Of a DNA stretch of 64,000 bases, positions 1,008-58,240 are shown in pieces. This DNA comes from Escherichia phage V18. A program made the translations under genes and the position numbers. The stretch's first letter is position 1. Each line of letters begins with the position of its first letter. Location of the stretch: the sequence record NC_041937.1. The stretch is one strand, 5' to 3'. The notes under the pieces were generated by a model that did no database searches, was not told where the DNA came from, and saw nothing but the letters and a program-made list of their open reading frames with translations.

Positions 1008-1012
1008 ATTTC

Positions 1013-2550: not shown

Positions 2551-2560
2551 AATAACTCCA

Positions 2561-2587: not shown

Positions 2588-2598
2588 TGTCTTAGAAA

Positions 2599-20135: not shown

Positions 20136-20146
20136 TTACCCTCTTT

Positions 20147-21190: not shown

Positions 21191-21279
21191 CGCGTTCTCC
21201 TGAGAAAATTCCTTAGGACTATTTTAACACTTTAGAGAACAAAATGCAAGAACGGAGTCCTTTCCGTTCCGACCTTTGT

Positions 21280-26025: not shown

Positions 26026-27516
26026 TTAAATAGTTTGTTGGAAAGTTATATTACTTTCGTCAAGGTCAAACACCTCGGTCATGTTCGCAACAATATCGTT
26101 TGTAGTGTAAGCTTCATCAGAAGCTCCTACTGGTTTAACTTGAATTACCAGTCTATTAAATCTGCCTATTGACACAGCAGCAGATGCAGCACCGACCAAT
26201 TGGATATTATACAACGTATCTGCAACATCCAGTCCGTTAACAACCTGTAAAAGAGCCTCTATAATAGCATCTTTTTCGGTTGTGGAAAGCGCAGCACCGG
26301 AGTAGGTAATTCTTACATCTAGGCGGTAGGTATTTGCCTTGGAGTAATAAATTCTTTCAGTTTGACCGTCAGATGTAGTGACATCGTAGAAAATATTACC
26401 ATAAGTCCTGTTCGTACAGGCTATAGTTTGGTAAAGTGCTTGGCAAATGTCCTCCGTTGCACCACCAAACACAACCACTTGGAACTTGTAAGGAGGTATA
26501 CCTTTAGCATCAGTTTTATCAGTGTTGTTGGAGAACACTCTCACTTTCTCAACACCTTTCACCTCGCTTACAGCGCTAAGGATTGCAGGACGGGTAGCCT
26601 TAGATGTTAACTGTTTTGTGCTGGAAGCTCTTAAGCGATACTCTGAGTCTTTCTCAACATCTCTGCCCTCATTGAATCTTTCTCGGTTGGTAAGCTTGAT
26701 AAATCCACTGGGTGTAGGAGACATTGTTGTTACGGTTTCTGCCTCTCTTGACAGCTCACCAGCCTCGTTAGCGATAACATCCAGGGTGATAGTTCTTTCC
26801 CCTACAATCGGGGATACTCTGAAATCTACTCTACTATTAAGTCCAACTTGATCAAGATTCGAATTGTACCCTATCCACAACGTTCCTGTCAACATATCGA
26901 TCTGAATCAAATCGTCGTTCAACAGGGTTGTATTATCGACAATAAACTGCTTAATCTCTCCGTAAAAGCTTGGCAGATCAGAAGAGTCCAGAGACTTATC
27001 TGTTAAAACCAGACTTTTTGTTTTGATACTTCCATCTGTCTGGTTGGTAATTTGAAAGTTGTATTTACCAATCCTTAGGTCTGGAGCATTTATTCTGTGA
27101 GCAATAAGATTCCCTGCTACTTGCACATCGTTGCTAAGCACAAAGTTGCCACTGTCCAGCGTATAAGTTTTGGAATCATAAATCATATTGTACGGCACAG
27201 TTGTGTTGATTGTCAACTGACAGGTGCCTGATGATTTAGAACGGCCTCTTCGGTAAATACCCTGTCTTCCAAGAAGCTCATCCAGGTAAATACCTTCTGC
27301 CCCATACAGCGTCTGTGATGCGTATACAGATGCTGCCATAAGAATAAGTTGATACTCTCGCTCGTTGAAGATAGTGGTCAGCTTATCTGCAACGGAGTTA
27401 CTCTGTACGTTGAAGTTTTCGCCAAAAGCACGGATCAGGCTTTGCTTAGTTTCAACGATTAGGTCATTTAGGGTTGGTATAACGAAACCAGCCTCTGTCA
27501 ATCCATACTTAGCCAC
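26026..27516 (-). CDS. baseplate J-like (gp6-like) protein, tentative
   Basis: 496-aa ORF; N-terminal pattern resembling Baseplate_J family; assignment from memory only. Confidence 0.45.
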   Translation of the reverse strand: MAKYGLTEAGFVIPTLNDLIVETKQSLIRAFGENFNVQSNSVADKLTTIFNEREYQLILMAASVYASQTLYGAEGIYLDELLGRQGIYRRGRSKSSGTCQLTINTTVPYNMIYDSKTYTLDSGNFVLSNDVQVAGNLIAHRINAPDLRIGKYNFQITNQTDGSIKTKSLVLTDKSLDSSDLPSFYGEIKQFIVDNTTLLNDDLIQIDMLTGTLWIGYNSNLDQVGLNSRVDFRVSPIVGERTITLDVIANEAGELSREAETVTTMSPTPSGFIKLTNRERFNEGRDVEKDSEYRLRASSTKQLTSKATRPAILSAVSEVKGVEKVRVFSNNTDKTDAKGIPPYKFQVVVFGGATEDICQALYQTIACTNRTYGNIFYDVTTSDGQTERIYYSKANTYRLDVRITYSGAALSTTEKDAIIEALLQVVNGLDVADTLYNIQLVGAASAAVSIGRFNRLVIQVKPVGASDEAYTTNDIVANMTEVFDLDESNITFQQTI

Positions 27517-27586
27517 GTCACTCCTCCGGTATGAAAATCTCTACAAGGTATTTTACCAAATTTTGTAACAATAGTCAATCTGAGCA

Positions 27587-27621: not shown

Positions 27622-30365
27622 TTAGTCGTGAGACTCGTTCCAAGGTCCCTGGAAGCTAGAGTTTGAACGACTTACTATCACAGTAGGACAGGATATTGTA
27701 ACACCTGTTACAGCTGAGGTGGACCAGCGTGTGTAAATTTCAACAATAATGTCTATGGTTTGTTCACCCAGCCCTGTTATCCCGACTGCACACATACCAT
27801 CGTTATCGTTACCATACTTCTTGCCGTTAAGCTTAAAGAAGAATGTTACGTTCTTGCCTTGGCCTTGAACGTTATCCACGTATCTCCATCTCCAACGGCA
27901 AACCTGCTGCCGAGAGTTGTATACTGGAGGACAGTCACCGTAGGTCTTGTGTGCAACTATTGCACCTTCGAACTGGTTAGCACGGATAACGGAAGCTTCT
28001 ACACGTCCACGGAATGTACCTCCTGTTGCATCTATGGTTCCTCTAAAGCTACCATTGTTGGCATAAACATCTCCACGGAAGGTACCACTGGTGGCGTTAA
28101 CTGCCCCTGTGAAGTTACCTGCACTAGCGTTGATGTTACCTTTCACCCACACATCCATAAACTGGGCGTGCCCGTTCTTGTTAATATACCAACCGTATTT
28201 ATGGTACCCGTTGCCATCGTAGTTGTTTGACGAAATCTCTTGTGCGATCTTGGCAGAGGAGATCGTGCCATTCTCTATAAAAGCGTCTTTCAAGAACGCT
28301 TGGTTGTTCTTGATTGCGAAAGCAAGGGTTGCTGTTCCATTGCCGGGGTTGTATACCGCAAAATTGTTTGCACTAACCATGAAGTAGGATTGAACTTGGC
28401 CCCCAGACCCTTCCATCCCCAACTGGATACCTGCAACATATTTAAGCAGCGTGCAGCGCATTCTACAAACTGAGAACTACCAAAAGCGTTTGTGGTTCGA
28501 ATATACCAATAATAAACCTTATCGTTCTGCAGACCTTCAGATGTCCAAGTTGAACCAACACCCATACGGGTGGCGTTTGAAGTAACGGTTGCATCGCTGG
28601 TGTCGGGCAACCTTGTCATACCAGATGTCCAAAAGTCATACTGGGTGCTTACACTTGCTAAATCCCTGCTGTGTGGAATCAAGGTGATAGCAAAGTATCC
28701 CTGCTTAACCTCTACAGAAACAGGAGCTTCAGGTGCCTGAATGTTAAACTCGCAGTACGCTTCTGGAGATACACCACCTTTATAAGATGTTGCAACCACG
28801 GTTGCTGTGTATGATCCTTTGGTCAAGCCTTCTACTCGGACAAACTGCTCAACTGTCTGTGCTGTCCAAACAATCTCTCCGTTCTTTCTTACCTGCACAA
28901 TATTTTGAGCGTAAGTTCCAACGTTGTCCCAAGCCAAAACACCGTGAGTTACTTCCCCGGCTTGGAGAACGGAATATCTGAAGTTTTGCGGTTGAGCTAC
29001 ACCAGATGGAGATATCGGAATATCTACATTGCCAGAATCCGGAAGTTGCCCTGTGGCATCATTCCACTCTTTAGCATCTTGACGAAGTTTTACCTTGACA
29101 CCACCCTTTTTGGTAAACTCCCATTCAAGAACCCTCATTTCTTGGCCCACTATACCAATACTTGGAAGGTTCATTGTAACGTAACGACCAGGTTTAAATT
29201 TAAAACCCCGCATATTGCAGGTGACTTCAATAATCCTGCCAGCTCTAGCGCGTCTTAAGAAGATTGCAGAAACACGCTGAGCTTGATAAGGGCTGGTAAC
29301 AAAGCGATAGTCTATATCGATTATCTTTCTTTCTCCATCCTTCTCTATCCACTCTGGGACAAACACTGATGGAAAATCTGTTTCAGAATACCCTTTAGTC
29401 GGACTGGTGAATCTGCCAGTTATTGTGTTGGATCTTTTGTCAAACGAGGCTTCCGGATAGATCTTGACCTCACCACAGACACAGTCCTCACTCAGTGTCA
29501 TTGTTGCTGGACCATAATATGCACCTACCAGCAGTCCATACTTACCAGCTACATAACTGAGATCTGCACCACAAGCTTTCAGCATTTCTGCCATAATACT
29601 TGCTGGAGCCTCATCCATGTCGAACTCACCATTGATGGTGTAACGGCGCTCACTAGTTCCGTCCGCGTTTCTTACCGCCTCATCGCATATGTTGGCAGCC
29701 TCCTTGAAGGACTCCCAGTTGATGGTTTCGTCAGGACATTTAAGGTACGTTCTTAAATAATCTAGAATCACCAAGGCCGCGTTATTGGTATACACCTCTT
29801 TACTGATACGAGGATCATAGCATTTTTTACCAACCTTGACGAGTGTAACGTTTGGCAACCCAAAAGGGAACTTGTTAGGGTCAAACCTGAAGCTGGCACG
29901 TAGCCAACTGATCCCTCTACCTATCATGTCTGGTGACCACGATGGGCAGTGTGTACCCATGAAAGGATCAGATGTTTTTCTGTCGTTATGTAGCTCCCAC
30001 GATACCAAATCTCCATACGAGGAAATAGGATTACCGTCGATAAGTATGTCCTCTATACCTTCCAGAGGGTGATTGGCAAGAACAATAGCACAATGGAGGG
30101 TTCTGTCGCTATCCTGCTCCAAAAACGCAAGCAATCCAGATGTGCGTGTCTTTCCATACACTACAGAGCAAGGTGCAGCAGAAGATCTGAGAAGCTTTTG
30201 TCTATCTTGCTGACTTCTGTAAGATTTGTTGCCCTCAAAAATCTTATCCAAAGTTCTGGTGGTCACAGTGTTCAGGCTGTCAGCCAGAGCTGCCTTGGAT
30301 GCGTTCCAGTCATAACTTGAAGATCTTGCAGAAGCAACGATGTTATCAATCATTGCAATTGGCAT
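27622..30365 (-). CDS. lambda J-like tail tip/host specificity protein, interrupted by a frameshift near 28440..28465
   Basis: 28290..30365 carries APEAPVSVEVKQGYFAITLIPH and YYWYIRTTNAFGSSQFVE, closely matching my recollection of lambda J; 27622..28461 in another frame continues with KYVAGIQLGME... and fibre repeats. Confidence 0.6.
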
Positions 30366-31932: not shown

Positions 31933-31994
31933 TGTGCCTCCAGGTTAAACAATCATGATAGTTATTTTACCAGATTTTAAGTTAATACGCAATA

Positions 31995-32031: not shown

Positions 32032-33064
32032 TTACTTCAGTTTCTCTTGCAACCCAGTAACAACCTCTGTCAATTTTTTAACCTGCTCCTCAAGGGCGGT
32101 TATTTTATCATCCTGCTCCCTGCAAACCTGGACAAGCAAGCCTGTTACAGCTGCGTAATCCACGCTGTAGAATCTTTCCTCTGTTATCAAAGGAGTTCCA
32201 TCTTGATCAGGGTTTGGGATTTCCTTTCTTTGCACGAAAGAGCTAACTGCTTCCGGCAGCGCTTCAAGCACCTCTTGTGCTATAACACCTGCATAAGGCA
32301 TACCATTCTCTTTCAAGGTGTAGGTATAACCCTTCATCTTACGGATAGCTTCTAACGCATCAGGAATAACAACTATGTTATCTTTCAGGTCTCTGTCAGA
32401 ACTCTGATTGACAGATGTGCAATTCACAGCACCGTTTACAGAAAGATATCTTGATTTATCCGGCAAGGTACCGCAATGCCATACATAAGCTGATTGAGAC
32501 TCGTCAAGAACCTTAAACTCTAGCACGTTTGGACGAGTCCCTGCACTGCCGTTGCCCCAATAATGCTGCCATCTGGAAAGCGTAGTTTCCAGAAAATGCC
32601 ACAGACAACCCGCCAACAACCATTGAACCTTCAGGTCCGTTGACGTTGCCAGCCAGTATTTTGGATGGGTTGTTAGGCCCAAACTGGTTGTTCCAGTCTG
32701 CACCAGTATGACATACAAAACCACCCGGTGCTGAGAAAGTGCCATCTTTGTTGAAGTTGTAGAATCTATGAGCTGTGCCTACAACATCGCGAACGATAAC
32801 TTGACCAGCTTCCGGAGTAGATCTGAACTCTGCCTGGCCTTGCAGTCTTGCACCATTACCACATTTAGAGGTAAAGGTGTTGTTGATCAGATCCTCTGTT
32901 CCTTCTGATGCAGCTTGGAACCCTGCGTTAGAGAACAGTGCTTTTCTAGTGGTCTGACTACCAGGACAAATGTAGTCAATACCGTCTGCCCAAAGCTCGA
33001 CTTTAGGCATGTTCATTTTGCTCATCACTGCATAGCGTTCAGGAGTCCCCAGGTAGTGCCACAT
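32032..33064 (-). CDS. tail fibre distal segment with C-terminal intramolecular chaperone (peptidase S74-like) domain; internal frameshift
   Basis: ORF 32513..33064 and ORF 32032..32745 overlap in different frames; C-terminal SSDRDLKDNIVVIPDALEAIRKMKGY...VIAQEV matches the S74 autoproteolytic chaperone signature. Confidence 0.5.
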
Positions 33065-33163
33065 AGTTCCACCACCAGTGTAGAAACCTGATGTTCCTTT
33101 GAACTCAACCAGAGGTCTGGTGTTTGTTACATCATCACCTTTGATTGCAAGACTTGGAAAGAA

Positions 33164-34963
33164 TCACCTCTGTCTGTCCAGCCACCAGTTCTGTAGTGAC
33201 ACTGTAGTGTAGCACAGTTCATTGGGTCCCCCTACAGTCCTGGCACTGGTACCACCACAAGCTATCGGTAGTGGTTCCCATTTGGCTTTCCGGTTGTTAT
33301 AAACACCCCATTCCAAACTGCCGTTACCGGATTCGTCCATCCCGCCATCCCAGATGACCATCTTGGCGGCTTTCTTAGATCCCCAGAAACCTCTTTCTGC
33401 TCCTGAACTGCGGATCCATTCTCCAAGTCCCCAGTTTGCCAGCTGACCGTTCAGATCACCAACCTGCATATATTTAGGACAATCTAAGACCCCATCCTCA
33501 CGGAAGCCTAAATATCTATGAGTTTCAGATCCTTTTGCGCCTTTGTGCAGGTGGATTGTCAACCAAGCCTTATTGTCGTTTCTTACCTCAGAGTAGATCC
33601 TATACCCATGCTCAAGGACACCGTCAGCGCTGTATTTGTCCCCGTTAACAATACCTGATGCTGACTTAACATCAGCAGAACTTTGAGACAGGTAAAGGTG
33701 CCCAAAGGTAGGGGAGTTTCTAGACCCGAGACCGATGTGTGCTCTAAAGGTATCATCGTTACGAGGTCTGACCATCGGCTGCCATGCAGTCCACTGATTT
33801 GTGTTGGCCTGGTAGGTTCTCAAATACCAAACATCTACGTTAGAGAATGGATAGTATTCCTGACGACAACCTGTACCGCCGTTAGCATTGTTCTGCCAAA
33901 CAATCAAGTGACCAGCACCAGAACCTGCAGGGTAACCATTTGCCTCAGTTGCATAGGCAGTCATCGGCTGGTAGTACACACCATCCTGATTACCAGTTAA
34001 GTTATTGATATTGAAATTTGGCTCAAGGGCTGCACGTTGCTTATAGAAAGCCCCCAAGTTAATGCGTGAACCTGCGGCATCCCTGGCACCTGTGCCGCCT
34101 TGCTCTATAGCAAGAGGTTGCCACGAAGCTGTTTGTTGGTTCCACATACCCCAACGGCCTGTTGCATCAAGCTGCAAGTACCCTGCTGTGTTTAAATCAT
34201 CTCCAGCACGGATAACTGTTCTTGTTGGGTTGTTTGCCTCTAGGCGTTTAAATTCATCACGAAGTGCTATTCTTTTTGTTGTTGCTACACCGTTGGTTAC
34301 TGCAATGGTATACATGGCTCCGGTGGTAGCGCCACGGAAAATACCATCAACAGTTGTAGTATCACGACGAGATACCACACCATTCAGAAATTTTTCACCA
34401 GCTGCTACAGAAGGGTAGTTGGTAGTTCTTCCCTCTTCAATAACTGCAGGGCCAACAAAGTTATCAAGGTGAATAACATCGCCTACAGTGTGCACTGTAC
34501 CAAAATCTACACGCTGTGCAAGGGCTTTAGCATCGTTAGCTGTCTGAACAGTAACATCCATTACATCCTGGACAGACTGCCCTTCGGCTGTCATAATCAT
34601 AGATGCGCCAATGGTAGATTCCAGCTCCTCCCTTAAGGACGGATCTGTATATACCATCCATGCAGCGTCAGTAATCCCACCATCGGAGTACGGTGAAGAT
34701 AGTGCAGGGACAGTGTGTGGAAATTCGCCTTTCCAACGCAGGTAGAGGTCTTCCTCTTCGAAGTAGGCAAAATCCATTGGGCCGTTTAACTTACCACCTT
34801 CCTTAAAGGAGATTACATGAGAAACAGTCCCATCCACATGGACAACATCGCCAATTTTTACACGACGAGTCAGGTCTGGTTGTTGAACAACCAGGTAATC
34901 ATCCTCTGTCACTGCGGTAGTGGCAGGAAGAGATTCAATTCTGACAACTTTAATATCAGCCAT
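33164..34963 (-). CDS. tail fibre protein (N-terminal anchor plus shaft)
   Basis: 599-aa ORF; N-terminal DDYLVVQQPDLTRRVKIGDVV shared with 37598..38266; ends at a TGA that is in frame with the downstream fibre segment. Confidence 0.55.
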   Translation of the reverse strand: MADIKVVRIESLPATTAVTEDDYLVVQQPDLTRRVKIGDVVHVDGTVSHVISFKEGGKLNGPMDFAYFEEEDLYLRWKGEFPHTVPALSSPYSDGGITDAAWMVYTDPSLREELESTIGASMIMTAEGQSVQDVMDVTVQTANDAKALAQRVDFGTVHTVGDVIHLDNFVGPAVIEEGRTTNYPSVAAGEKFLNGVVSRRDTTTVDGIFRGATTGAMYTIAVTNGVATTKRIALRDEFKRLEANNPTRTVIRAGDDLNTAGYLQLDATGRWGMWNQQTASWQPLAIEQGGTGARDAAGSRINLGAFYKQRAALEPNFNINNLTGNQDGVYYQPMTAYATEANGYPAGSGAGHLIVWQNNANGGTGCRQEYYPFSNVDVWYLRTYQANTNQWTAWQPMVRPRNDDTFRAHIGLGSRNSPTFGHLYLSQSSADVKSASGIVNGDKYSADGVLEHGYRIYSEVRNDNKAWLTIHLHKGAKGSETHRYLGFREDGVLDCPKYMQVGDLNGQLANWGLGEWIRSSGAERGFWGSKKAAKMVIWDGGMDESGNGSLEWGVYNNRKAKWEPLPIACGGTSARTVGGPNELCYTTVSLQNWWLDRQR

Positions 34964-39682: not shown

Positions 39683-39866
39683 TATACCTCCTCAGTTTTG
39701 TCAACAACTCCACCCACTGTTTCCCCAAGGCCAAGCTCTGTAGTGTAATCACCGCCTTCTATGGTGCCCTTATGATGCACCGTGATCACCTTATAGAAGC
39801 CTGTATATTGCTTGCTTTTAAGATAAATAGTGGACTCTGGGAGGATAGCTCCGTTAAGGCATGTGG

Positions 39867-40679
39867 TTACAGTAAGACCGACATCCTCTCTCGGGTTTTT
39901 CTTTTTCTTACGTGTGCCACCTTTCGCAGCAGCTTTAGCTTTTCGTTTTTTAGCAGGCTCGGGGTTTTTAGGGTGGGAGATCCGTGCATCCCAGACTCTG
40001 CACTTATTTCAAACACAGAGTCCTTGAACCTTTTTCCAACCTTGGTCCAATACAAAGCCCCATCCTGAACGCTAAATGTGGAGTTGGTCAGTCTTGCAAA
40101 CCTGCGGAGGTTCTCTGCAGTGTTTCCAGAGAAAGCCATAGAGTATTGCAAAGTCTGGTTTCCAAAACCAACAACCCTACCTTTTGGCAAGTTCATATCC
40201 TTCAGTAGGTCATTAAGCACAGAGTTCAGAGGTGTGCCTTTCTGATAAGATCTTGTGCTTTGGCACTTAATGATGTTCTCAGTACCATCCCCGAAGATGA
40301 ACTTAGTTTTTCTGGTCGGACCTTCCCATCTGTCTTCAACAAACTCTACAGTTCCGGAGAATATCAACTGGTTCTCATCATCATAGCCAGCTTCAAACAT
40401 AACTGCAAGGGCATCAGCCTGATGCATATCCAGATAGTTAACTGTATCGTCAGACAGGTTGTAAACTGTCACATAACCTTTGTTTGGCTCTTTGGTATTG
40501 TCCTTTTGTATGTCAAACTCTATATTGGCGGCACCAGTGTCTGAGCTAACTTCATAAACTCCGGAATCACTCTCCCCTTTCTTTTCAACAGATTTTGGGA
40601 TATTGGTTTTTGATTTACCGCCATGCTCTACCGGACGACCAAACAATAATCGCCATGTTCTACGTCTGTACTCTGCCAT
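39867..40679 (-). CDS. baseplate/tail structural protein
   Basis: 270-aa ORF. Confidence 0.4.
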   Translation of the reverse strand: MAEYRRRTWRLLFGRPVEHGGKSKTNIPKSVEKKGESDSGVYEVSSDTGAANIEFDIQKDNTKEPNKGYVTVYNLSDDTVNYLDMHQADALAVMFEAGYDDENQLIFSGTVEFVEDRWEGPTRKTKFIFGDGTENIIKCQSTRSYQKGTPLNSVLNDLLKDMNLPKGRVVGFGNQTLQYSMAFSGNTAENLRRFARLTNSTFSVQDGALYWTKVGKRFKDSVFEISAESGMHGSPTLKTPSLLKNEKLKLLRKVAHVRKRKTRERMSVLL

Positions 40680-42059: not shown

Positions 42060-43559
42060 TTACCAAAGGTCGGTAGACATGAAGTTGATATCTTTGCTGT
42101 TCTCCCACTCAAGTTTTGCATCAAGTATTTTGCTAAACTCACCCTCATCTATGGAAAGCGTGATTTTCCCATCACTGATCTCTAAAGGTAGCATTTCCAT
42201 AGTTCTTAATTGAGAAGCAAAACCAGGGCCACCTGGCAACGGAAGAGTCCCGCCCGGCAAAGTGTCCAAAGGATTAACAAACCCGTTACCTCCCGATATG
42301 ATATCTTTGCGAATCATATCGCTGATAGTATCCAGTTGCTGATTTCTTTCACTCAGTGGGTTGAAACGGTCATTAAATAATTCCCCGGCGCTTAATATTG
42401 TACCGATAATGCCCAGCTTGCCGAGCAGACCAACTTTACCACCAGGTGTCTTGAGGCCACCTCCACCTTTTCCTGCCGCGCCACCACTACTAGATCCTTC
42501 TGCAGTAGCGGCACCCGCTGCTCCAGCTGCACCCCTTAGAGAGTTAAGGAATTTAAAGGTTTTTACAAGCATAGATGCCATGACAAAACCTTTTGTTAGG
42601 GCGTTGACTACCAGCATGATGGCAGCAGCAAACCCTGCCCATTTAGCATAGCTAAAGGTGTCATGAAGCTCTTCAGAATATTCCTTCGTCTTAGCTGTTA
42701 TGAATCCCCATTTAATCCCCCATTCAAGGAAAAACATGCGGATCTTGACTATAGTGTTGTTTAGTTCACCAACTACCCAGTTAAGGCCTCTCACAAACCC
42801 ACTAACAAAATCACCAGAGGCATCCCACACAAATTGCAGAGTCTCACCAGTGCGGATTAATGTATAATAGAACTCTGTTAGTTCGTCAGACCAACGGGTG
42901 AACAGTTTCTGACGAGTCAGTTCGATGAAGGTTTTCAGTCTGTTTTCTGCCAGCACGTTAGACTTCTGCATTCTTTCATAACCAGCTGCAGATGCCTCGT
43001 TCATGTACTTAGCCACATACTTCATGATCTTGGCTGTTTTAACCTCACCTTTCTTCATCATGTCCATGAACTGATCCATGGATAGTTCAGAAAGACCAAA
43101 AGCCTCTTTAGTGGCCTTGATAAAAGGTTCGTATGCACCAGGCAAGGCTTCAGCAAGTTGTTGCTTCAGTTCTTCGGACATTACTTGTCCCTTGCCAAGC
43201 ATCTGTTGGATTGCCATAATACCGCGCTGGTATTTTACCTCATCAGCACCATAAGCAGCAGCATACTGGGAGTATGCAGAAAACAGCTCATGCACTTCCT
43301 GATTTGTCATCTGGTTTTTGGCGTTTACCGACATCTGGGCGTAACCTTGAAGACCAGATTTGAGATCAAAACCAAGACGCATAGCCTCTTGCTGGACAAA
43401 CGCAACCTCACTGTTGGCTTTGTTTGGATCTCCAGTAACAGCAGTAAGAGCAGCACTTGCCCCCTCCATCATGTGACCGGATCTGTTAACCGCAGCAAAT
43501 CCAGAAAAAGCTGTATACGCAGCTGTTGCATTAATAACAGATCTACGTAAGTCTCTCAT
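42060..43559 (-). CDS. tape measure protein (C-terminal part or whole)
   Basis: 499-aa ORF; helical, Gly/Ala-rich internal tract, position between chaperones and baseplate. Confidence 0.5.
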   Translation of the reverse strand: MRDLRRSVINATAAYTAFSGFAAVNRSGHMMEGASAALTAVTGDPNKANSEVAFVQQEAMRLGFDLKSGLQGYAQMSVNAKNQMTNQEVHELFSAYSQYAAAYGADEVKYQRGIMAIQQMLGKGQVMSEELKQQLAEALPGAYEPFIKATKEAFGLSELSMDQFMDMMKKGEVKTAKIMKYVAKYMNEASAAGYERMQKSNVLAENRLKTFIELTRQKLFTRWSDELTEFYYTLIRTGETLQFVWDASGDFVSGFVRGLNWVVGELNNTIVKIRMFFLEWGIKWGFITAKTKEYSEELHDTFSYAKWAGFAAAIMLVVNALTKGFVMASMLVKTFKFLNSLRGAAGAAGAATAEGSSSGGAAGKGGGGLKTPGGKVGLLGKLGIIGTILSAGELFNDRFNPLSERNQQLDTISDMIRKDIISGGNGFVNPLDTLPGGTLPLPGGPGFASQLRTMEMLPLEISDGKITLSIDEGEFSKILDAKLEWENSKDINFMSTDLW

Positions 43560-44395
43560 GCATCGCCTAGTGTAAGCGTTTGGCTGGTGGCACTTTTAAA
43601 TCCAGACTGCAGTGCTGACAGGTGGGCGTTAAAGGTTGACTTTTTCATCTCCCCGCGAGCAAACCTGGACTCTAACTCTGAGTATCCTGGCAAGCTTCCA
43701 CGGAATCCGGCCCCATACTTGGCAGAAAGTCTTATCGCGGAGTTGTAGAGGTGGGTTCTTCTTGCCTCACGATCCGACATAAGCCTATTATCCATACCAG
43801 CTTTACCGTCCCTTCTTAGCTGTCTATGATAACGATTCATAGCAGCTGTCTGAGCTTTTACAAGATTAGGGTCGGAAGCCACACCACCCATATTAGGGTT
43901 ACCGGGGATATATTTGAAAGCTTTGGCATTAGCCAGAACTCTTGCCTTAGGTGCCTTATAACCGCCGTAAGACACTGGTGCAGATTTGGCAGCCTTTTTG
44001 GCCTCTTTAGCTTGCTGCTGGTAGAACTTACGCATCCTAGCCATTTCTGGATTTTTAGCGGTAAGATTACCTACAGCTTGTTTACGTCTCGCATTCTCCC
44101 TACGTTCTATTGCAGCCCTTACTGCAGCCTCTTTCTTGGCCTGTGCTACGCTCTCCCTGTGCAGCTTAGCATTTGCCTGAGATTGCTGTCTGGCAACCCG
44201 CTGCATTGTCTGCTGGGTTTTAACAGCTACCGCCTGCCATCTACTCATGGGGTTGGCTGAGTTAAAATCCTCACCTAGTTTCCTGAACTCCCTCCCAATA
44301 CTGCGAATTTTCTCTACAGCTTTTTTGTAGGAGGAGTTCTCTATCTCAAAGCCAATCTTGTTGACTGTTGTGGCAACTATTTTGTTTGTAGCCAT
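43556..44395 (-). CDS. basic coiled-coil protein, possibly N-terminal part of tape measure
   Basis: 279-aa K/R/A/Q-rich ORF; ATGA overlap with 42060..43559. Confidence 0.45.
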   Translation of the reverse strand: MATNKIVATTVNKIGFEIENSSYKKAVEKIRSIGREFRKLGEDFNSANPMSRWQAVAVKTQQTMQRVARQQSQANAKLHRESVAQAKKEAAVRAAIERRENARRKQAVGNLTAKNPEMARMRKFYQQQAKEAKKAAKSAPVSYGGYKAPKARVLANAKAFKYIPGNPNMGGVASDPNLVKAQTAAMNRYHRQLRRDGKAGMDNRLMSDREARRTHLYNSAIRLSAKYGAGFRGSLPGYSELESRFARGEMKKSTFNAHLSALQSGFKSATSQTLTLGDA

Positions 44396-45183: not shown

Positions 45184-45299
45184 TTTATAGCATCCTTATT
45201 AGTCATGTTGTGCACCATATTTGTGTATTTTACCATGATTATGGTGCATTGTCAATTTAACCTTTCAAGCAATTCAAGAACGTGTGTCAAAACCATAAA

Positions 45300-48740: not shown

Positions 48741-48781
48741 TAATGTATTTTACCACAAAGATACATCAAAAGCAACAGTTT

Positions 48782-50387: not shown

Positions 50388-51212
50388 TTATTCACCACCT
50401 TTCAGAGTTGCTTTAACAACCAGCTCTGGACGGGTGTTAACTGCCAGCATGGAAGTTTCAGATTCAATCTTCTCTTCACGCAGGTATGCAGAGTGTTTAT
50501 ACCACATGTACAGTTCCTGTGCTGGAGTGTTTGCTTCGTTAACATCGTCTGCCGGAGCAAAGTGCAGCTGGAACATCTGATCAATACCCATCGGCAGAAT
50601 GCGAGCTTCTTTCTTAGGAATATTGCCAGAGATATCTTCGATAAAGGTGATACCTTTATGCTCAAACACACGGTATACGCTGTCTTGACCGCCAGCACCC
50701 AGACGGCGACGCAGAGGTTCCTGAGCAGAGCCGTAATAGGTGTATGCCAGTTCTACCAGAGGGTCATACTGACAGGTTGTGTCACCAGGTGCATAGGATT
50801 TACCCAGAATAGCCTGGAACAGCGCTTTCTCACGCAGTGCTTCATGAGAAACACGGATACGGCGAACAACGCGGGTTACTACGTCCTGAACAGTTTTCGG
50901 AGCATCAGGTGTGAAGTAACGACGGAAGTTCTGAACATCTGCTGCGGTGATGCCTTTGTCCAGAGGGAAGAACGGGATGTTCAGGTTTTTAACCTGAGCA
51001 CGTTCACTACCAACGTAGTTACGCTCACCACCACGACGGCGTGCCGGAATGTCGGTTACAACTTCATCAACACGCTCAATCTGAGCAATTGTTGAGGTGC
51101 CGAGACGGGTTTCGAACAGATCCATACCAGTAATCAGGCGGAATTGACGCGGAACAAGGTCCAGAGTAGCACCTAAATCAACAATGCCAAATTCATCTTT
51201 ACGAGTAATCAT
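50388..51212 (-). CDS. putative major capsid protein
   Basis: 274-aa ORF, codon usage of a highly expressed gene, strong terminator downstream, position after portal/scaffold; short for an HK97-fold capsid protein. Confidence 0.45.
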   Translation of the reverse strand: MITRKDEFGIVDLGATLDLVPRQFRLITGMDLFETRLGTSTIAQIERVDEVVTDIPARRRGGERNYVGSERAQVKNLNIPFFPLDKGITAADVQNFRRYFTPDAPKTVQDVVTRVVRRIRVSHEALREKALFQAILGKSYAPGDTTCQYDPLVELAYTYYGSAQEPLRRRLGAGGQDSVYRVFEHKGITFIEDISGNIPKKEARILPMGIDQMFQLHFAPADDVNEANTPAQELYMWYKHSAYLREEKIESETSMLAVNTRPELVVKATLKGGE

Positions 51213-51296
51213 TTATTTCTCCAAAGTAAAATTGTAGCCAGCATCGCTAGAATCAACTTTGCCGAGCACGATATCAGAATATTGAGCGGTAATCAT
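51213..51296 (-). CDS. 27-aa upstream ORF duplicating the capsid gene initiation region
   Basis: GAAATAAATGATTAC occurs twice (51205..51219 and 51289..51303); uORF MITAQYSDIVLGKVDSSDAGYNFTLEK ends TAA immediately before the capsid ATG. Confidence 0.3.
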   Translation of the reverse strand: MITAQYSDIVLGKVDSSDAGYNFTLEK

Positions 51297-51380
51297 TTAT
51301 TTCCCCCGTTAAACTCTTATGCTTCAGCAGATCCAGATACTCTTTAGTTTTGGTTGCGTCCCTTGATCAGGTTCCCTTCT

Positions 51381-51728
51381 TTATCGAAGAGATCCCAGCC
51401 TACCAATACAAGACTCTGCGTCAGCTTGCGCCCATTCCCAATCAGGATGCTCTTTAGCCCAAGCCTCCTCTTCAATCTCAAAACCAAGCATGTGTGCAAG
51501 TGCTTTAGCATCATCATACCACATATCGAAGAAACGACGCAAGTATTCTTCAAAACTAAGCTCCACAGTAACTTGGCGAAGTGCCTTAACAATATCGTCT
51601 GTTAACTGCTCAGGCTTAAGATCACTCTTCATCAAAAGAGATACAGGTCTGTTGTTAGCGCTATAGCCTTGCGCCTTATGGCACAGGGCAATCCCCTTCT
51701 CTTTAATAGTAATCGTTTTTTCAGACAT
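51381..51728 (-). CDS. head protein (decoration or scaffold-associated)
   Basis: 115-aa ORF between scaffold/protease-like and capsid genes. Confidence 0.4.
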   Translation of the reverse strand: MSEKTITIKEKGIALCHKAQGYSANNRPVSLLMKSDLKPEQLTDDIVKALRQVTVELSFEEYLRRFFDMWYDDAKALAHMLGFEIEEEAWAKEHPDWEWAQADAESCIGRLGSLR

Positions 51729-53771: not shown

Positions 53772-53873
53772 AAGCTTTACCCCTCAAAACAGTATAACAA
53801 AATAGCCCTCATGTTAGAGGGCTAGTATCTCCGATTACTCTATTCTACCACATCTAATTAAGATTGGCAACAC

Positions 53874-55429
53874 TTAGATAAAACGCTTGAACATAGAAGG
53901 TGATGAGATTGATGGAATCACACAAGGAAGTGCTACCTCCTCTTTCTCCAGGAAATTAATCGCAGAAGCTACACAGTCGGCCCAGTCGTCTTTTCTGTTA
54001 AATGTTGATCTTTCCCCGTTGAATTTTTCAAGTTCAGTCAGAAATGCTTCCAGAGTATCAGGATGGAAACTGGATTTTACAATCCTCACCATTCCTTGTT
54101 GGGCAAGATTGGCAAAAGGTGAGAACCTTGTCAGTTTAGATTTGTTGGAAGGCATTGGGTCTTCTTCAACCCTAAACCCTTCGGCAAGCAAGGATCTGGA
54201 GGAGGTTAAGAACTCACTCTTACCTGCCTGACCGGGGTCCACAGAGAATACGATTATACAATCATCACCATCAAACTGCGCCTGTTTCCTGATGATCACA
54301 TCTCGTTCACCAGCCTTTTTACAGAACTTGCCTTCCAGACCTGTGGAATACCTCCCGTCATCCACGTTCTCAGGACAATAATCCCCGGACAGGTAATAAA
54401 AGCCGTCGCTATCTTTACTTACCTTGACACTGGCGGTAAAGTCAGGAAATTTATTACCGGAAGTTCTCTCGGTTCCTGCTTTATCCCATGCCCTGCAAGA
54501 CACTGATCCAAGGGGTACTCTATCGGCATCACGAAGGAAAGATCTTTGAAAATAGTTTGCACCCTCAGGCTTTGCAAACCAGTTACCATGGAGAAGCTGA
54601 GCTTTTTCAAGCTCGGGCAGACCTTCAAGGAAAGCAAGGTATTCTGGGTTGTCTCTTAAGCAGACAGGATTATCGAAGATTGTTGCGCCTATAAACGAGA
54701 ATGACAACGGTCTCGGCTTGATCTCTACACCCAGTCCGTTAACCGTGGTGTATTTCTCTATCAACTCTTCTTTAGAGTCTCCCCAGATAAATTCACCGTC
54801 GCGTCGGATAAAATATCTTTTCTTACCGCATTTCTCCGGATCTGGATACCCTTCATCGTCCAACCACCACCTAACCAGTTTGGCAAGCATGTGTTCTGAA
54901 TCGGGGTTACAGCTGATAACCATTCTTGATGGATACTTTGACTGAGATCTCAGACGAGACATCAGATAGTCTATCTGCTCCCATTCGAACTGCGTGCCTC
55001 ATCGAAGCAAACCAAGCAAACCATGGTATACTCAAGCCCTTGATGGTTAAGCTTATCTTGTACATACTCCATGTGGCAGTATTTTACAACAGCTCCCTTT
55101 TTGCTTCTATCCCACTTGCCAGTGTTCGGATCAAACCGTGGAAAAATGAACTTATGATCCTTCTCTCTGAACTTTGGCTTAATGTTTTCAGGCAGATCAC
55201 TATAAATAGCTACTGCTTTAGGCCATAGTCCACCCTCACCTTCCAACTGTGGGGTTGTTCTTCGGAACATAACCACAGAGCTGTGGGGGTCATCAATAAT
55301 TTTAAGTGGCATCAATTGCAAGAGGAACGACTTGCCAGACCCTGCGGCACCGCCGATTACCAAAATATCTGCATCGTTTTCGAGGATCATCTTCTGCTTT
55401 TCAGAACACGGTCCGTAAATCTTAGACAT
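53874..55429 (-). CDS. terL: terminase large subunit, split by apparent frameshift at about 54975..54998
   Basis: N-terminal ORF 54971..55429 has Walker A GGAAGSGKS and Walker B LVCFDEA; C-terminal frame is open from 54998 (QFEWEQIDYLMSRL...) and continues in ORF 53874..54962. Confidence 0.7.
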
Positions 55430-55716
55430 TAACCTCTCTCCTTTGGAAACAGTGTTCTAATATAGTCTTGCAAAATGATCAATTTAGCTCTATCATTGCT
55501 ACAAGACAGATTATTATCCCTCATAATGCCAGAATTCACTGCATCTGGCGCACCTTTCTTCAAAGGCATAGCTTTAGCAGGTGGTTTCATGGCACCTTCC
55601 GGGGGTTTAACAATCAACCTTCCTACATCAGGAGGGTCAATCTTGTATTCTCTCTCAACGCTGGTTGCACACCCACATAATAACAAGCAAACAATAAACA
55701 GTGTAGCAACTCTCAT
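55429..55716 (-). CDS. o-spanin (Rz1-like outer-membrane lipoprotein)
   Basis: 95-aa ORF; signal sequence with lipobox-like LLLCGCA; Pro-rich mature region. Confidence 0.5.
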   Translation of the reverse strand: MRVATLFIVCLLLCGCATSVEREYKIDPPDVGRLIVKPPEGAMKPPAKAMPLKKGAPDAVNSGIMRDNNLSCSNDRAKLIILQDYIRTLFPKERG

Positions 55717-56111
55717 TGATCCTCCTGATTGATACTCTCATTATAAATATCTATAAGCTGATCAGGAAGTGTTGACTTCTTGCCTTCAGGTGACTGGAGG
55801 TAGATAATCTGCTTTTCTTTACCTGCCTTCTCAGCCATATTTAATTTATCCTGCAGATCAGAAAGGGATTTTTCAAGGTTTTTAACCTCCTCTGCGTGGC
55901 CCATTTTAATTTTGTCGGCCTGCTTTTGTTGCTGATCAAGGATCCGTTCCCACTTTAACTCTGTTGCTGACACACCCTCTTGGTAGGCTTCATTAAGCTT
56001 AGAGTTAAACCAATATACGGCCCCAAGATAAGCTGTACCTAGCGCAGCTGCAAAAACTAAACCTTTTATGATCCCTCTATACCTACTCAGCCATGTTAAA
56101 ACTGAAATCAT
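55713..56111 (-). CDS. i-spanin (Rz-like)
   Basis: 132-aa ORF; N-terminal transmembrane segment then coiled coil; ATGA overlap with o-spanin. Confidence 0.55.
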   Translation of the reverse strand: MISVLTWLSRYRGIIKGLVFAAALGTAYLGAVYWFNSKLNEAYQEGVSATELKWERILDQQQKQADKIKMGHAEEVKNLEKSLSDLQDKLNMAEKAGKEKQIIYLQSPEGKKSTLPDQLIDIYNESINQEDQ

Positions 56112-56119
56112 TTTAAGGC

Positions 56120-56155
56120 TCCAGAAACGAAAAAACCCCGCAGCTATACAGCTAA
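56120..56155 (-). terminator. rho-independent terminator
   Basis: Composite hairpin CCCCG...CGGGG then TTTTTT on minus strand, downstream of 56210..56485. Confidence 0.45.
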
Positions 56156-56209
56156 CGGGGCGGGTTAAAATTGAGTAACCTAAATAGATCGAAACTAACT
56201 AAAAGGAGA

Positions 56210-56485
56210 CTAATACTTATCGAGCACTCGGTGGATGATTCTAACAGTAACTGCATTTTCATTCATCAAGTATGCATCTACATCTCTGTAAATATAAAAC
56301 TTCTGCTCACTATCAACAACACAAGCTACTGCCCCTTCAGAGTTGTCTTCAAAAAAGACCACCACTGCATCGCAGCTGAGTTCATGATATGACTCTCGAA
56401 GATTTACAGCCAGAGGATTGAAATCGTCACGAAAATCTACAGTATGGGTTGGATTTACACGCTCTACAATTTTAAGTGTATACAT
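56210..56485 (-). CDS. hypothetical protein
   Basis: 91-aa ORF. Confidence 0.4.
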   Translation of the reverse strand: MYTLKIVERVNPTHTVDFRDDFNPLAVNLRESYHELSCDAVVVFFEDNSEGAVACVVDSEQKFYIYRDVDAYLMNENAVTVRIIHRVLDKY

Positions 56486-56531
56486 TTTAAAGGTTCCTTT
56501 TGTTTATATATGTTTAAAGTATAACTGAAAG

Positions 56532-56608
56532 TGGTCTCCACGGAGTGATTCGAACACTCGACCTCCTGATCCCAATGGTTTATCTCTACCAAGCTGAGCT
56601 ACGCGGAG
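56532..56608 (-). tRNA. tRNA-like gene, possible anticodon TGG (Pro), anticodon stem does not pair as read
   Basis: Good acceptor stem, TTCGAAT T-loop and encoded CCA; putative anticodon loop ATTGGGA but flanking stem unpaired. Confidence 0.45.
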
Positions 56609-56619
56609 TATTTATTATT

Positions 56620-56694
56620 TGGTGGCCCTGGGTGGAATTGAACCACCGTCTGGCGATTATGAGTCGCTTGCTTGAACCTTCCAGCTACAGGGCA
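56620..56694 (-). tRNA. tRNA-Met/Ile-like (anticodon CAT)
   Basis: T-arm GGTGG-TTCAATT-CCACC, anticodon loop CTCATAA, encoded CCA; position 1:72 mismatched. Confidence 0.55.
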
Positions 56695-56770
56695 TGGTGC
56701 TGATAGCAGGACTCGAACCTGCAACCTATTGATTACAAATCAATTGCACTACCAATTGTGCTACATCAGC
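56695..56770 (-). tRNA. tRNA-Thr (anticodon TGT)
   Basis: Clean cloverleaf: 7-bp acceptor, D-stem GCAC/GTGC, anticodon stem ATTGA/TCAAT with loop TTTGTAA, T-arm GCAGG-TTCGAGT-CCTGC, CCA encoded. Confidence 0.7.
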
Positions 56771-56775
56771 AAAAA

Positions 56776-56860
56776 GGTGCTAGGTGATGGAATCGAACCA
56801 CCTATGTATTCAACGACCAATAGATTTACAGTCTACACCGCTACCTCTACGGGATAACTC
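56776..56860 (-). tRNA. tRNA-like sequence, Tyr-like anticodon arm (GTA) with long variable region; no acceptor stem found
   Basis: Anticodon stem-loop GTAGA-CTGTAAA-TCTAT and T-arm with TTCGATT loop present; 5' and 3' ends do not pair. Confidence 0.3.
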
Positions 56861-56867
56861 CCCAATT

Positions 56868-56942
56868 TGGCACCCCGTACTGGACTCGAACCAGTGTCAA
56901 CGGCTTAGAAGGCCGCTGCTTTATCCACTAAGCTAACAGGGC
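56868..56942 (-). tRNA. tRNA-Arg (anticodon TCT)
   Basis: Acceptor GCCCTGT/ACGGGGT (with G-U pairs), anticodon stem GCGGC/GCCGT with loop CTTCTAA, T-arm ACTGG-TTCGAGT-CCAGT, CCA encoded. Confidence 0.65.
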
Positions 56943-57038
56943 ACTGGGTGGCTTTCTTTTACACCTTAGCCGCCAGAAAAGGTGGGAGACCATGTTTACA
57001 ATATTACACTGTTAAGCAAAGTTTGTCAAGAAAATATT

Positions 57039-57377
57039 TTAGCTATTGCTAACAGGTTGTATTTCTGTGGTAAATGGCATAAAAGGTGCTGGTTTTTCAG
57101 CCTCTTCTACTACCACCTCTTCCTCTTCACCAAACATCTCATCATATTCTTCCTGCATTCGGTCTGCCTTATCAAGAACATACTCTGCAATGCTTTGACG
57201 AATATTTTGTTTGGTTTTCGGGTCCAACATCAGCTCTCTTAAAACTTTGTGAGCTTCTGGAACCATCGCTATAAAAGATTCCTTCATATCAAGGATGTTC
57301 TTCTCTAGCTGAATGGCGTTGGACTCCTCTTTCAGAGGTCTGCCTCTACGGCGACGCTTTTTAGTTGTATCCGCCAT
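57039..57377 (-). CDS. AT-hook-like DNA-binding protein
   Basis: Start moved to ATG 57377 with GGAGGA RBS; N-terminus MADTTKKRRRRGRPLKE contains an RGRP AT-hook-like motif; acidic C-terminus. Confidence 0.4.
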   Translation of the reverse strand: MADTTKKRRRRGRPLKEESNAIQLEKNILDMKESFIAMVPEAHKVLRELMLDPKTKQNIRQSIAEYVLDKADRMQEEYDEMFGEEEEVVVEEAEKPAPFMPFTTEIQPVSNS

Positions 57378-57721
57378 GTTTCCTCCATTATCACGTGATA
57401 GGTGGATTTTATCACAGCAAATACTGATTGTCAAGTTCGCCGCAGGGGTGTATTCCCTGCGACTTGCCCAGCGTCCTGGACCAGCAAGACCCAACAAGTG
57501 GGTTACCAGAGCACATTACCGCGCTTTGGCTCGACCTTATTACAGGTTGGCTGGGGTCACATCGTCATGTGCTGGCTGCCCCTACCATTTTAAGTGTGGT
57601 GCACTATCAAGCCCTCTAAGGGGAACTCAGTCTTCTCCGAACCCTGTTTCAAAACATCCGGAGATAAAGCCATCAAATTCATCTTTAAATCGGATATTCA
57701 TCATGATACACGAAAACAACC

Positions 57722-57964
57722 TCATTGTAAAGCACAAATAAATAAAACATACTTAATTTGTTTGTTATCAGGCTCAGGGTAGAAGTAGAAGATCTTGCTA
57801 TCACCGATCTGAACACCACCATCCCAACAGCATAGCCCATAACCCGTATTCATACAAGCTAAGTCGTTGGCAAAATCTATTGCATCATCCAGTGCACGAA
57901 ATTCACCTTCATCTTCTAAATAATCCTCATTCATGGAACGAAAAACGAGCTTAACCTTAAACAT
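57722..57964 (-). CDS. hypothetical protein
   Basis: 80-aa ORF. Confidence 0.3.
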   Translation of the reverse strand: MFKVKLVFRSMNEDYLEDEGEFRALDDAIDFANDLACMNTGYGLCCWDGGVQIGDSKIFYFYPEPDNKQIKYVLFICALQ

Positions 57965-58240
57965 AGCATTACCTGTAGACCTCGTAAGTTAAAATTGTAT
58001 CACATCATATTGCAGATCTTATCAGGTAACATTATTTTTGTCAACAGATTCCGGCCTTATCCCCTCCTGTCTGCATATTCTTTAATCGCAACCTCATCTG
58101 CATTGGCGACTAAATCTTCAAAGTAACTCTCAAGCTCCTCGTCAATGTCAGGAAACCAACTCTTTTTCCTGTCAGTGTGAATCGCAGACTTGTTGAACTT
58201 ATTACAGTTCTTTGCTACCGGATTGTTCATTAATCACCCC

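Follow-up and report, generated by a model that had tools for sequence, protein, structure and literature searches.

Dispersed lysis genes in a Vequintavirus genome, with a spanin pair beside the large terminase and a Sec-type SleB-like hydrolase beside rIIA

The window, the whole 64,000-nucleotide stretch of DNA analysed here, is part of an rV5-like myovirus genome of the genus Vequintavirus. Its lysis genes are very likely scattered in a T4-like manner: a spanin pair lies beside the large terminase gene (TerL), the lysin and a putative holin would be encoded past the right end, and a SleB-like hydrolase probably has an accessory function. The sequence-only reading had described the lysis genes as dispersed, and for phages of this type that description holds. 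All the features it named were found at the positions it gave.

CM1, FV3 and LL12 share ~98% nucleotide identity with the window and are colinear with it by blastn, which places window position 64000 at LL12 69904. Gene for gene, the window matches rV5 and LL12 (PMC3606486, PMC6658697) in gp66/gp67, the spanins beside TerL; in gp2, the cell-wall hydrolase beside rIIA; and in gp29 and gp31 of the fibre cluster. It differs from rV5 in ending short of gp89, the lysin gene, and of gp129, the putative holin gene, and in having a shortened tRNA cluster. It also carries many frameshifts and deletions, and reads as a damaged or draft copy.

The lysin of this genus is encoded beyond the right end of the window. 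In rV5 (by its Table S3), FV3, LL12, naswa and CM1, a 156-aa lambda-R-type lysin gene directly follows the DNA ligase gene; in LL12 it is gp90, at 71587..72057. The rV5 gp89-type lysin matches lambda lysozyme 1AM7 with E=3.4e-56, and its hydropathy profile has no N-terminal hydrophobic segment and no signal sequence. By synteny, the lysin gene would lie at the window equivalent of ~65.7–66.2 kb, ~1.7 kb past position 64000 and 9.6 kb from the spanins; its presence in this genome is thus probable from the gene order of five relatives. LysECP26, which is 156 aa long and shares 98% identity with the rV5 lysin, has been purified and is lytic in vitro (PMC9728275). The peptidoglycan step is most likely carried out by a soluble lambda-R-type transglycosylase homologous to rV5 gp89 and LysECP26. 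A classical holin-endolysin cassette elsewhere in the genome would speak against dispersal; the relatives do have an endolysin elsewhere but no such cassette, so the dispersed arrangement stands.

Since this lysin lacks an export signal, a hole-forming holin would be needed. The only published candidate is rV5 gp129, a putative holin of 78 aa with two TMDs, whose homologue is expected by synteny ~25 kb past the window's right end. A hydropathy scan of the remaining FV3 proteins also recovers a 78-aa two-TMD protein of the gp129 type. In the window itself no canonical holin is recognisable by homology, in agreement with the sequence-only reading, which had nonetheless offered two small membrane proteins of the fibre cluster as possible candidates:

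19869..20135, minus strand: 88-aa small protein (rV5 gp29; module member 'C'; phrog_1322)
21280..21594, minus strand: 104-aa protein (rV5 gp31; module member 'A'; phrog_5345)

Both ORFs exist and are conserved, and they belong to a conserved membrane-protein module of the tail-fibre cluster; neither has a holin-family match or an adjacent endolysin gene. Their PHROG labels are 'membrane protein' or unknown, and their neighbours are tail-fibre genes. The 104-aa protein has a clear N-terminal TMD (residues 5-23) and a C-terminal part that is helical, charged and coiled-coil-like; the charges flanking the TMD suggest an N-out/C-in topology with a long helical tail. Its homologues occur in Certrevirus, Mydovirus and a PVP-SE1-like Salmonella phage. 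The 88-aa protein matches phrog_1322 ('membrane protein') with E=2.7e-32, has no Pfam or NCBIfam family and is only weakly hydrophobic: its peaks average ~1.07 over 17 residues, and gp29 is without a TMD entry in rV5 Table S3.

It is unlikely that one or both of these proteins act as a holin or a holin/antiholin pair, placed like T4 gene t, which adjoins gene 38. Both genes belong to the late strand block, some holin is required by the soluble lysin, and the TMD of the 104-aa protein and the two moderately hydrophobic stretches and charged C-terminal tail of the 88-aa protein are compatible with such a function. Both are also kept across the Vequintavirinae genera, where in genera other than Vequintavirus they flank a polytopic membrane protein of 152-157 aa. 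However, Pfam and NCBIfam scans place neither in a holin family, no PHROG matched by either is annotated as a holin, and 'holin' appears in 0 of the 40 records listed among the 367 phage records matched by the 88-aa protein, whose hydropathy is in any case weak. In the alignment of its homologues, the invariant Trp, Gly, Glu and Arg positions (a W/G/E/RWG motif) suit a specific binding or assembly protein better than a fast-evolving holin. Both stay closely syntenic with the genes for fibres and baseplate, in Phapecoctavirus as well, and this fits fibre assembly or receptor masking, for which T5 Llp is the comparison case, equally well or better.

More broadly, no holin family in Pfam, NCBIfam or PHROGs was matched by the 88-aa, 104-aa or gp129-type proteins or by a 62-aa two-TMD protein of Certrevirus, and Pfam scans of five homologues of the 88-aa protein gave no holin. 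A sub-threshold XhlA match of the 104-aa protein (E=0.012) was rejected as noise. The Certrevirus two-TMD protein shows no homology to gp129 or to the 88-aa protein.

The SleB-like gene lies at the other end of the window, beside the rII genes:

1..61: start of rIIB, at the window's left edge
72..2053, minus strand: rIIA, frameshifted in the window, beside the SleB-like gene
2050..2550, minus strand: SleB/CwlJ-like cell-wall hydrolase with a Sec signal peptide (rV5 gp2 homologue; PF07486)

The sequence-only reading had placed a signal-peptide SleB-like protein here, and both features are confirmed. Residues 51-161 match the Pfam family Hydrolase_2 (PF07486) with 69.5 bits against a cut-off of 27, and the protein also matches phrog_938. 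The Glu of 'YREARG' (E47), which we take to be the catalytic Glu, is invariant in an alignment of rV5-type, Certrevirus and T5-type homologues. In the match to PDB 4F55 (E=9e-6), it aligns with 'YGESRG' of 4F55/4FET. The N-terminus, MKIKIFAIILSAFLSLPVVA/A (the slash marks cleavage), has a basic n-region, a strongly hydrophobic core of 17 residues (IFAIILSAFLSLPVVAA, Kyte-Doolittle 2.29) and a V-V-A/A cleavage site, and was called a signal peptide by rule-based reading; the corresponding sites in homologues are SQA/S and SFA/K. A signal peptide and toxicity in E. coli have also been reported (PMC7344957).

Several related assignments were considered and set aside. The protein does not have the character of a SAR endolysin, since its core scores 2.29, contains 6/17 Ala or Ser and no Gly, and is followed by a canonical cleavage site. 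Nor is it spore SleB proper: it scores 45 bits against the TIGR02869 equivalog, whose cut-off is 236.5, and only the C-terminal catalytic part aligns. It shares with Bacillus SleB (PDB 4F55/4FET; TIGR02869) the Hydrolase_2 catalytic domain family and the conserved Glu, but lacks the N-terminal peptidoglycan-binding domain. As the setting is a Gram-negative, non-spore-forming organism, SleB is a domain relative and not an orthologue. An antisense two-TMD ORF at 1953..2174 (plus strand) occupies the non-coding strand of the SleB-like/rIIA junction, is unannotated in relatives and appears spurious. A conserved pairing of the SleB-like gene with a T5.083-like gene was also rejected, because window 2599..2979 has no relationship to the gene that precedes the T5-type SleB-like gene.

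The SleB-like gene overlaps the rIIA start by 4 nt, and rIIA is co-directional. In rV5 the gene shares transcription unit 10-1-238-164 with rIIA, rIIB and replication genes. T5-like and phAPEC8-like phages carry signal-peptide homologues in addition to other annotated enzymes of lysis, indicating an accessory role. Most likely the protein is exported by Sec and acts as a distinct periplasmic hydrolase, its gene forming one block with rIIA/rIIB and its role in lysis being accessory. The sequence-only reading had called it the only clear murein hydrolase candidate. This is correct inside the window, where Pfam scans of ten proteins of the tail, baseplate and tape measure revealed no other murein-hydrolase domains, but not for the genus, given the lysin beyond the right end. 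The further proposal that this protein, some 53 kb from the spanins, is the candidate endolysin and relies on Sec-dependent export is not supported, given the lambda-R-type lysin without a signal sequence in five relatives.

It would still be conceivable, but is quite improbable, that the SleB-like protein is the principal endolysin, exported early by Sec and unleashed on membrane depolarisation like Lys44 (of fOg44) or the SAR endolysins. The Hydrolase_2 domain is genuine, the presumed catalytic Glu is conserved, and a canonical signal peptide is present in all the divergent homologues. CR3_087 has been described as 'implicated in host lysis' (PMC7344957), and RefSeq names the FV3 protein 'endolysin'. 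The SleB-like gene is kept in all Vequintavirinae genera, whereas the type of 'classical' lysin varies by genus (PMC7344957; PMC11370258); this conservation, together with the reported toxicity in E. coli, means that a real role in lysis is possible. In the Certrevirus phages CB7 and POP17 (PMC7344957), which have an orthologous signal-peptide hydrolase (46% identity), spanins beside TerL and no lysis cassette, the gene is followed by an overlapping ORF for the 62-aa two-TMD protein, resembling a lysin-holin pair. In the window, however, the gene downstream is rIIA; no small membrane protein adjoins the gene in Vequintavirus, and no homologue of the 62-aa protein was found in that genus. Against a principal role are also the separate lambda-R-type lysin of the genus, with its close homologue LysECP26 lytic in vitro, and the company of rIIA, rIIB, MoxR and replication genes, outside the late unit. 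The coexistence of T5-like signal-peptide homologues with other lysis enzymes points the same way, and the CPT curators call the SleB-like protein 'hypothetical' and gp90 the 'endolysin'. It is similarly doubtful that the fibre-cluster 104-aa and 88-aa proteins form a Vequintavirinae lysis-timing module (holin/antiholin), and/or that the SleB-like protein provides a second, holin-independent peptidoglycan route in rV5-/T5-like phages. The preferred assignment is an accessory periplasmic hydrolase acting beside a soluble lambda-R-type lysin.

The spanin genes are found between the terminase gene and the tRNA cluster:

53874..55429, minus strand: large terminase, its start overlapping the o-spanin stop (TAATG)
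55429..55716, minus strand: o-spanin, an Rz1-like outer-membrane lipoprotein of 95 aa (phrog_1267, lipobox)
55713..56111, minus strand: i-spanin, Rz-like, 132 aa (phrog_4297, TMD, composition)
56129..56161, minus strand: intrinsic-terminator-like hairpin with a U6 tract (sequence, RNA fold)
56535..56942, minus strand: shortened tRNA cluster, with Met, Thr and Arg intact
56535..56608, minus strand: degenerate tRNA-Pro-like gene within the cluster
56786..56852, minus strand: tRNA fragment within the cluster

On sequence grounds, 55429..56111 is the i-spanin/o-spanin pair of the published 'rv5' family, listed under the 'Separated' architecture (PMC6139136), with a predicted spanin function. The i-spanin matches phrog_4297 ('Rz-like spanin') with E=7.5e-50. 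It has a single N-terminal hydrophobic segment, with its peak at residues 14-32 (Kyte-Doolittle 1.76) and the core GLVFAAALGTAYLGAVYWF at 17-35, followed by a periplasmic part of 97 aa that is 34% charged and contains no Cys. Its counterparts in LL12, Murica and naswa are annotated as i-spanins, and the CPT annotations name the pair i- and o-spanin. The o-spanin matches phrog_1267, also labelled 'Rz-like spanin', with E=1.3e-22, and its N-terminus, MRVATLFIVCLLLCG/C16, fits a PROSITE-type lipobox pattern (L-L-C-G/C16) with Ala and not Asp at +2. The mature protein of 80 aa has 9 Pro (11%) and one further Cys (C72), and the Murica o-spanin is 100% identical to it over the whole protein. The i-spanin stop and o-spanin start overlap as ATGA at 55713..55716, so that the o-spanin gene is directly downstream and not embedded, and the TAATG overlap then joins it to TerL. 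The two spanin genes and the large terminase gene form a translationally coupled series.

A separated Rz/Rz1-like pair beside terminase, as proposed by the sequence-only reading, is upheld by the PHROG matches, the TMD, the lipobox and the ATGA overlap. Its placement between terminase and the tRNA cluster is likewise correct, with tRNA genes at 56620..56942 and one 91-aa ORF between the tRNAs and the spanins. That the two ORFs instead encode packaging-linked proteins such as a small terminase is barely credible: they are directly upstream of TerL and coupled to it, a frequent TerS position, and no TerS is annotated among the relatives examined, but an N-terminal TMD in one and a lipobox signal in the other make a spanin pair and are unlike a cytoplasmic DNA-binding TerS, both proteins have strong PHROG spanin matches, and spanins beside TerL are documented in VP4 and SP6 (PMC7344957).

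As in lambda Rz/Rz1, one partner of the spanin pair is an inner-membrane protein whose TMD is N-terminal and the other a small, Pro-rich lipoprotein of the outer membrane; the mechanism is presumed to be the same. The window genes differ in being separated and not embedded; the i-spanin has no Cys, whereas lambda Rz has two, and the mature o-spanin contains a single Cys. The two pairs show no detectable sequence similarity apart from their PHROG family labels. The i-spanin would be a type II protein of the inner membrane and the o-spanin a lipoprotein of the outer membrane. Binding between their periplasmic C-termini is expected to bridge the envelope, and after peptidoglycan degradation the pair would finish lysis by fusing or disrupting the outer membrane.

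The hairpin at 56129..56161 folds with -17.1 kcal/mol (z=-2.5), lies immediately upstream of the i-spanin RBS (GGAG, 56120..56123) and corresponds in position to a terminator annotated in Murica. No late-promoter motif was found between this terminator and the i-spanin start, so we can only infer how the spanins are expressed. They belong to the late, minus-strand unit and, with the hairpin immediately upstream, are probably made at a modest level by read-through. Downstream, a 9-nt tandem duplication and a 1-nt deletion break TerL into two ORFs in the window.

The overall arrangement is similar to that of T4, whose lysis genes e, t, rI and pseT.2/pseT.3 are unlinked (cited in PMC3606486 and PMC7344957). 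In both, lysin, holin and spanin genes are spread over a large myovirus genome, the spanins are separated with a stop/start overlap, and rIIA and rIIB are present. The rV5-type lysin, however, is of the lambda-R type and not the T4 E type, no homologue of T or RI was detected, and the rV5-type spanins are of another sequence family and lie beside TerL.

Published accounts (Kropinski 2013; Buttimer 2020; the LL12 announcement) already describe the dispersal of the lysis genes, the signal-peptide SleB-like protein, the spanin position beside TerL and the absence of a recognised holin. The present results thus have little weight as a discovery: the arrangement is in print for rV5, LL12 and the Certrevirus phages, and the spanin family has been catalogued. 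They do carry a caution: choosing the only candidate in a window as the endolysin failed here, because the real lysin of the genus lies 1.7 kb past the window edge. The rV5-like phages are a therapeutically used group.

The spanin pair beside the large terminase gene (TerL) is present as the sequence-only reading described, as two minus-strand ORFs. The features of this region are:

53874..55429, minus strand: TerL, in two ORFs (54971..55429 and 53874..54962)
55429..55716, minus strand: o-spanin, 95 aa
55713..56111, minus strand: i-spanin, 132 aa
56129..56161: G+C-rich hairpin followed by U6
56535..56608: tRNA-Pro-like gene
56620..56942: tRNA genes

Both spanin ORFs match PHROG spanin families (E=7.5e-50 for the 132-aa ORF and 1.3e-22 for the 95-aa ORF), and their orthologues in Murica and LL12 carry i-/o-spanin annotation by CPT curators. 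The i-spanin has a single N-terminal hydrophobic segment, followed by a highly charged 97-aa part without Cys. The o-spanin begins with MRVATLFIVCLLLCG|C, a lipobox match that puts the cysteine at position 16 and Ala at +2, and the mature protein is 80 aa long, with 11% Pro and one additional Cys. The three genes overlap at their junctions, i-spanin stop with o-spanin start in ATGA, and o-spanin stop with TerL start in TAATG. The separated architecture includes the 'rv5' family in the spanin survey by Kongari et al. (PMC6139136), and the spanins adjoin TerL, outside any cassette, according to Buttimer et al. (PMC7344957).

The hairpin (-17.1 kcal/mol, z=-2.5) lies directly before the i-spanin ribosome-binding site and carries a terminator annotation in Murica. 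The late-promoter motif proposed by the rV5 authors, TGGTAAAATA, is enriched in the window at one mismatch or fewer (19 matches seen, 6.2 expected), with 16 of the 19 on the minus (late) strand, for example at 27549..27558, 31963..31972, 45226..45235 and 48746..48755. Since no match at this stringency lies between the terminator and the spanin start, spanin expression is probably driven by read-through.

The neighboring tRNA cluster (56535..56942) is shortened, with about 370 nt of CM1 missing between short repeated tRNA-like segments. The missing part is the tRNA-Tyr region in CM1, and Murica and LL12 also have Ser and an odd tRNA there. In the tRNA-Pro-like gene, which was missed by ARAGORN and has an Rfam score of 32 bits, the anticodon stem has lost its 5' half to an 8-nt block change. 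The TerL break (54995..55020) consists of a 9-nt tandem duplication (GGTTTGCTT) and a 1-nt deletion within a GGG run, and coincides exactly with the TerL intron position of LL12 and naswa. The rV5 TerL is likewise reported to be interrupted. The break could be what intron loss or a homing-site change left behind, or it could be a sequence error.

The region 53800..58000 is covered completely, at 97.6–98.5% identity, by Vequintavirus members among GenBank phages (megablast), including Shigella phage CM1, Escherichia phages FV3, naswa and LL12-type Murica, and further members of this genus of rV5-like myoviruses with a genome of about 136 kb. LL12 and FV3 are colinear with the window, starting at their conventional position 1 (local blastn). 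The left end contains:

1..61, minus strand: 5' end of rIIB, start codon at 59..61
72..2053: rIIA
2050..2550, minus strand: SleB-like cell-wall hydrolase with a signal peptide

The window opens inside rIIB, so the source sequence continues across the point where the rV5, FV3 and LL12 genomes are conventionally opened, and the SleB-like gene shares one co-directional block with rIIA and rIIB. On comparison with FV3 or Murica, 12 of 47 genes need at least two reading frames, including rIIA, TerL, tape measure, hub and several fiber genes. The same comparison shows internal deletions in the major capsid (MCP), gp58, gp61 and gp37 genes, and the head-decoration gene is missing from the window. Examples of affected stretches are 72..2053, 13503..18065, 27622..30365, 32032..34963, 39685..40679, 42060..44395 and 50388..51728. 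Overall the window resembles an rV5-like genome that is either defective or of draft quality, which makes ORF calls for long genes unreliable. Neither spanin ORF is damaged, nor is the SleB-like ORF.

The SleB-like protein had been proposed as the endolysin, and this is not borne out, as the genus has a separate lambda-R-type lysin (LL12 gp90, rV5 gp89). LL12 gp90 is encoded at 71587..72057 on the plus strand, right behind the DNA ligase gene. Since window position 64000 corresponds to LL12 69904 (local blastn), the lysin is predicted at window-equivalent ~65683..66153, 1.7 kb past the window end and 9.6 kb from the i-spanin. The ligase–lysin synteny also occurs in FV3, naswa, CM1 (the closest relative) and rV5 (gene table). 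At 156 aa, the lysin lacks a hydrophobic segment at its N-terminus; its match to lambda lysozyme 1AM7 has E=3.4e-56. gp89 is called 'an obvious lysin' in the rV5 paper (PMC3606486), and the near-identical LysECP26, when purified, lysed 29 of 29 Gram-negative strains (PMC9728275).

Directly downstream of the lysin, outside the window, is LL12 gp91 (rV5 gp90; 17122..17328 of the LL12 stretch L003), a 68-aa member of phrog_4641 with an N-terminal hydrophobic segment. Its FMAA|C14 fits a lipobox when read by eye rather than by a computed pattern match. It may be a small lipoprotein and is not holin-like. The gap between the lysin and the gp91 homologue holds an HNH endonuclease gene in FV3 and a 253-aa hypothetical gene in CM1.

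The SleB-like protein is, as had been noted, the only clear murein hydrolase candidate inside the window, and no second one turned up when ten tail and baseplate proteins were scanned with Pfam. It matches Pfam Hydrolase_2 (69.5 bits, threshold 27) and the SleB catalytic domains 4F55/4FET, whose 'YGESRG' Glu aligns with its 'YREARG' Glu, a residue invariant across rV5-type, Certrevirus and T5-type homologues. Orthology to spore SleB was rejected, since the full-length match scores 45 bits where 236.5 are required and the N-terminal binding domain is absent. The N-terminus has a basic n-region, a 17-residue strongly hydrophobic core and a V-V-A|A site, and reads as a cleavable Sec signal, not a SAR domain. 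The signals of homologues are unrelated yet equally canonical, ending in SFA|K in Certrevirus and SQA|S in the T5-type. Signal-peptide homologues are found in T5-like, phAPEC8-like and PAK_P-like phages; T5-like T5_ev219 encodes a 149-aa hydrolase (2438..2887 of stretch L010) that carries a canonical signal peptide of its own, MKAALLLVAALTFSFSSQA|S.

In Vequintavirus the SleB-like gene overlaps the rIIA start and has the same direction as rIIB, MoxR and replication genes; in rV5 it belongs to transcription unit 10-1-238-164, not the late unit. Buttimer et al. (PMC7344957) describe the protein as conserved across every Vequintavirinae genus, equipped with a signal peptide and toxic in E. coli. 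They also report that the Certrevirus gene is followed by an overlapping two-TMD ORF, an order confirmed here in POP17. Sequence comparison found no Vequintavirus homologue of this 62-aa protein. Together with the rIIA/replication unit and the signal-peptide homologues elsewhere, these points make an accessory role in the periplasm the likely one for this hydrolase, with a true second route to lysis as a minority possibility.

rV5 gp129 (78 aa, basic C-terminus) has been published as a putative class II holin and is the only protein given two TMDs by both TMHMM and Phobius (PMC3606486). A hydropathy scan of the remaining FV3 genome recovered its homologue at FV3 94416..94652 (26417..26653 of stretch L006), about 25 kb past the window end. 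gp129 is confined to the genus Vequintavirus (116 matching records), and FV3-type and CM1/rV5-type proteins share only ~54% identity though the genomes are >90% identical. Such rapid divergence would be compatible with a holin and proves nothing.

Two small proteins in the tail-fiber cluster had been suggested as possible holins. They are members A and C of a module that in relatives also includes B:

A, ~104-112 aa: TMD and helical tail; in the window 104 aa, 21280..21594, minus strand
B, 152-157 aa: polytopic
C, 86-91 aa: invariant W/G/E/LRWG; in the window 88 aa, 19869..20135, minus strand
Module loci: window 19869..21594 (without B); relatives L012 1684..2761, L013 1694..2767, L015 1689..2758

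A clear TMD at the N-terminus of the 104-aa protein is followed by a long, helical and charged tail; the 88-aa protein is only weakly hydrophobic, its family having an invariant Trp, Gly and Glu plus the LRWG motif. Both are conserved throughout Vequintavirinae, and the 88-aa family also occurs in Phapecoctavirus, adjoining a baseplate wedge gene. Neither matched a holin family in Pfam, NCBIfam or PHROGs, and for the 88-aa protein none of the 40 records listed among 367 matches is named 'holin'. In Certrevirus, Mydovirus and a PVP-SE1-like Salmonella phage, A and C flank the membrane protein B, in the order tail fiber, fiber-assembly protein, A, B, C, tail fiber; Vequintavirus lacks B and has a 347-aa fiber gene between A and C instead. 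This synteny would fit fiber assembly or receptor masking at least as well as lysis. T4 t adjoins gene 38, and by this analogy a lysis role for the two proteins is possible.

In the proposed mechanism, the i-spanin (N-in, C-out) would join the lipidated o-spanin late in infection, in complexes that span the envelope. An unproven holin would permeabilize the inner membrane and release the soluble lambda-R-type transglycosylase, and, once the peptidoglycan mesh is removed, the spanins would disrupt the outer membrane. What is demonstrated of this scheme is the homologies, the synteny and the sequence features, together with the activity of the lysin's homologue in vitro; its other steps are inferred by analogy with lambda and T4. 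As an arrangement it is not new, since the rV5, LL12 and CB7 papers and the spanin survey between them contain every element; the sole correction needed is that the window edge hid the real lysin of the genus.
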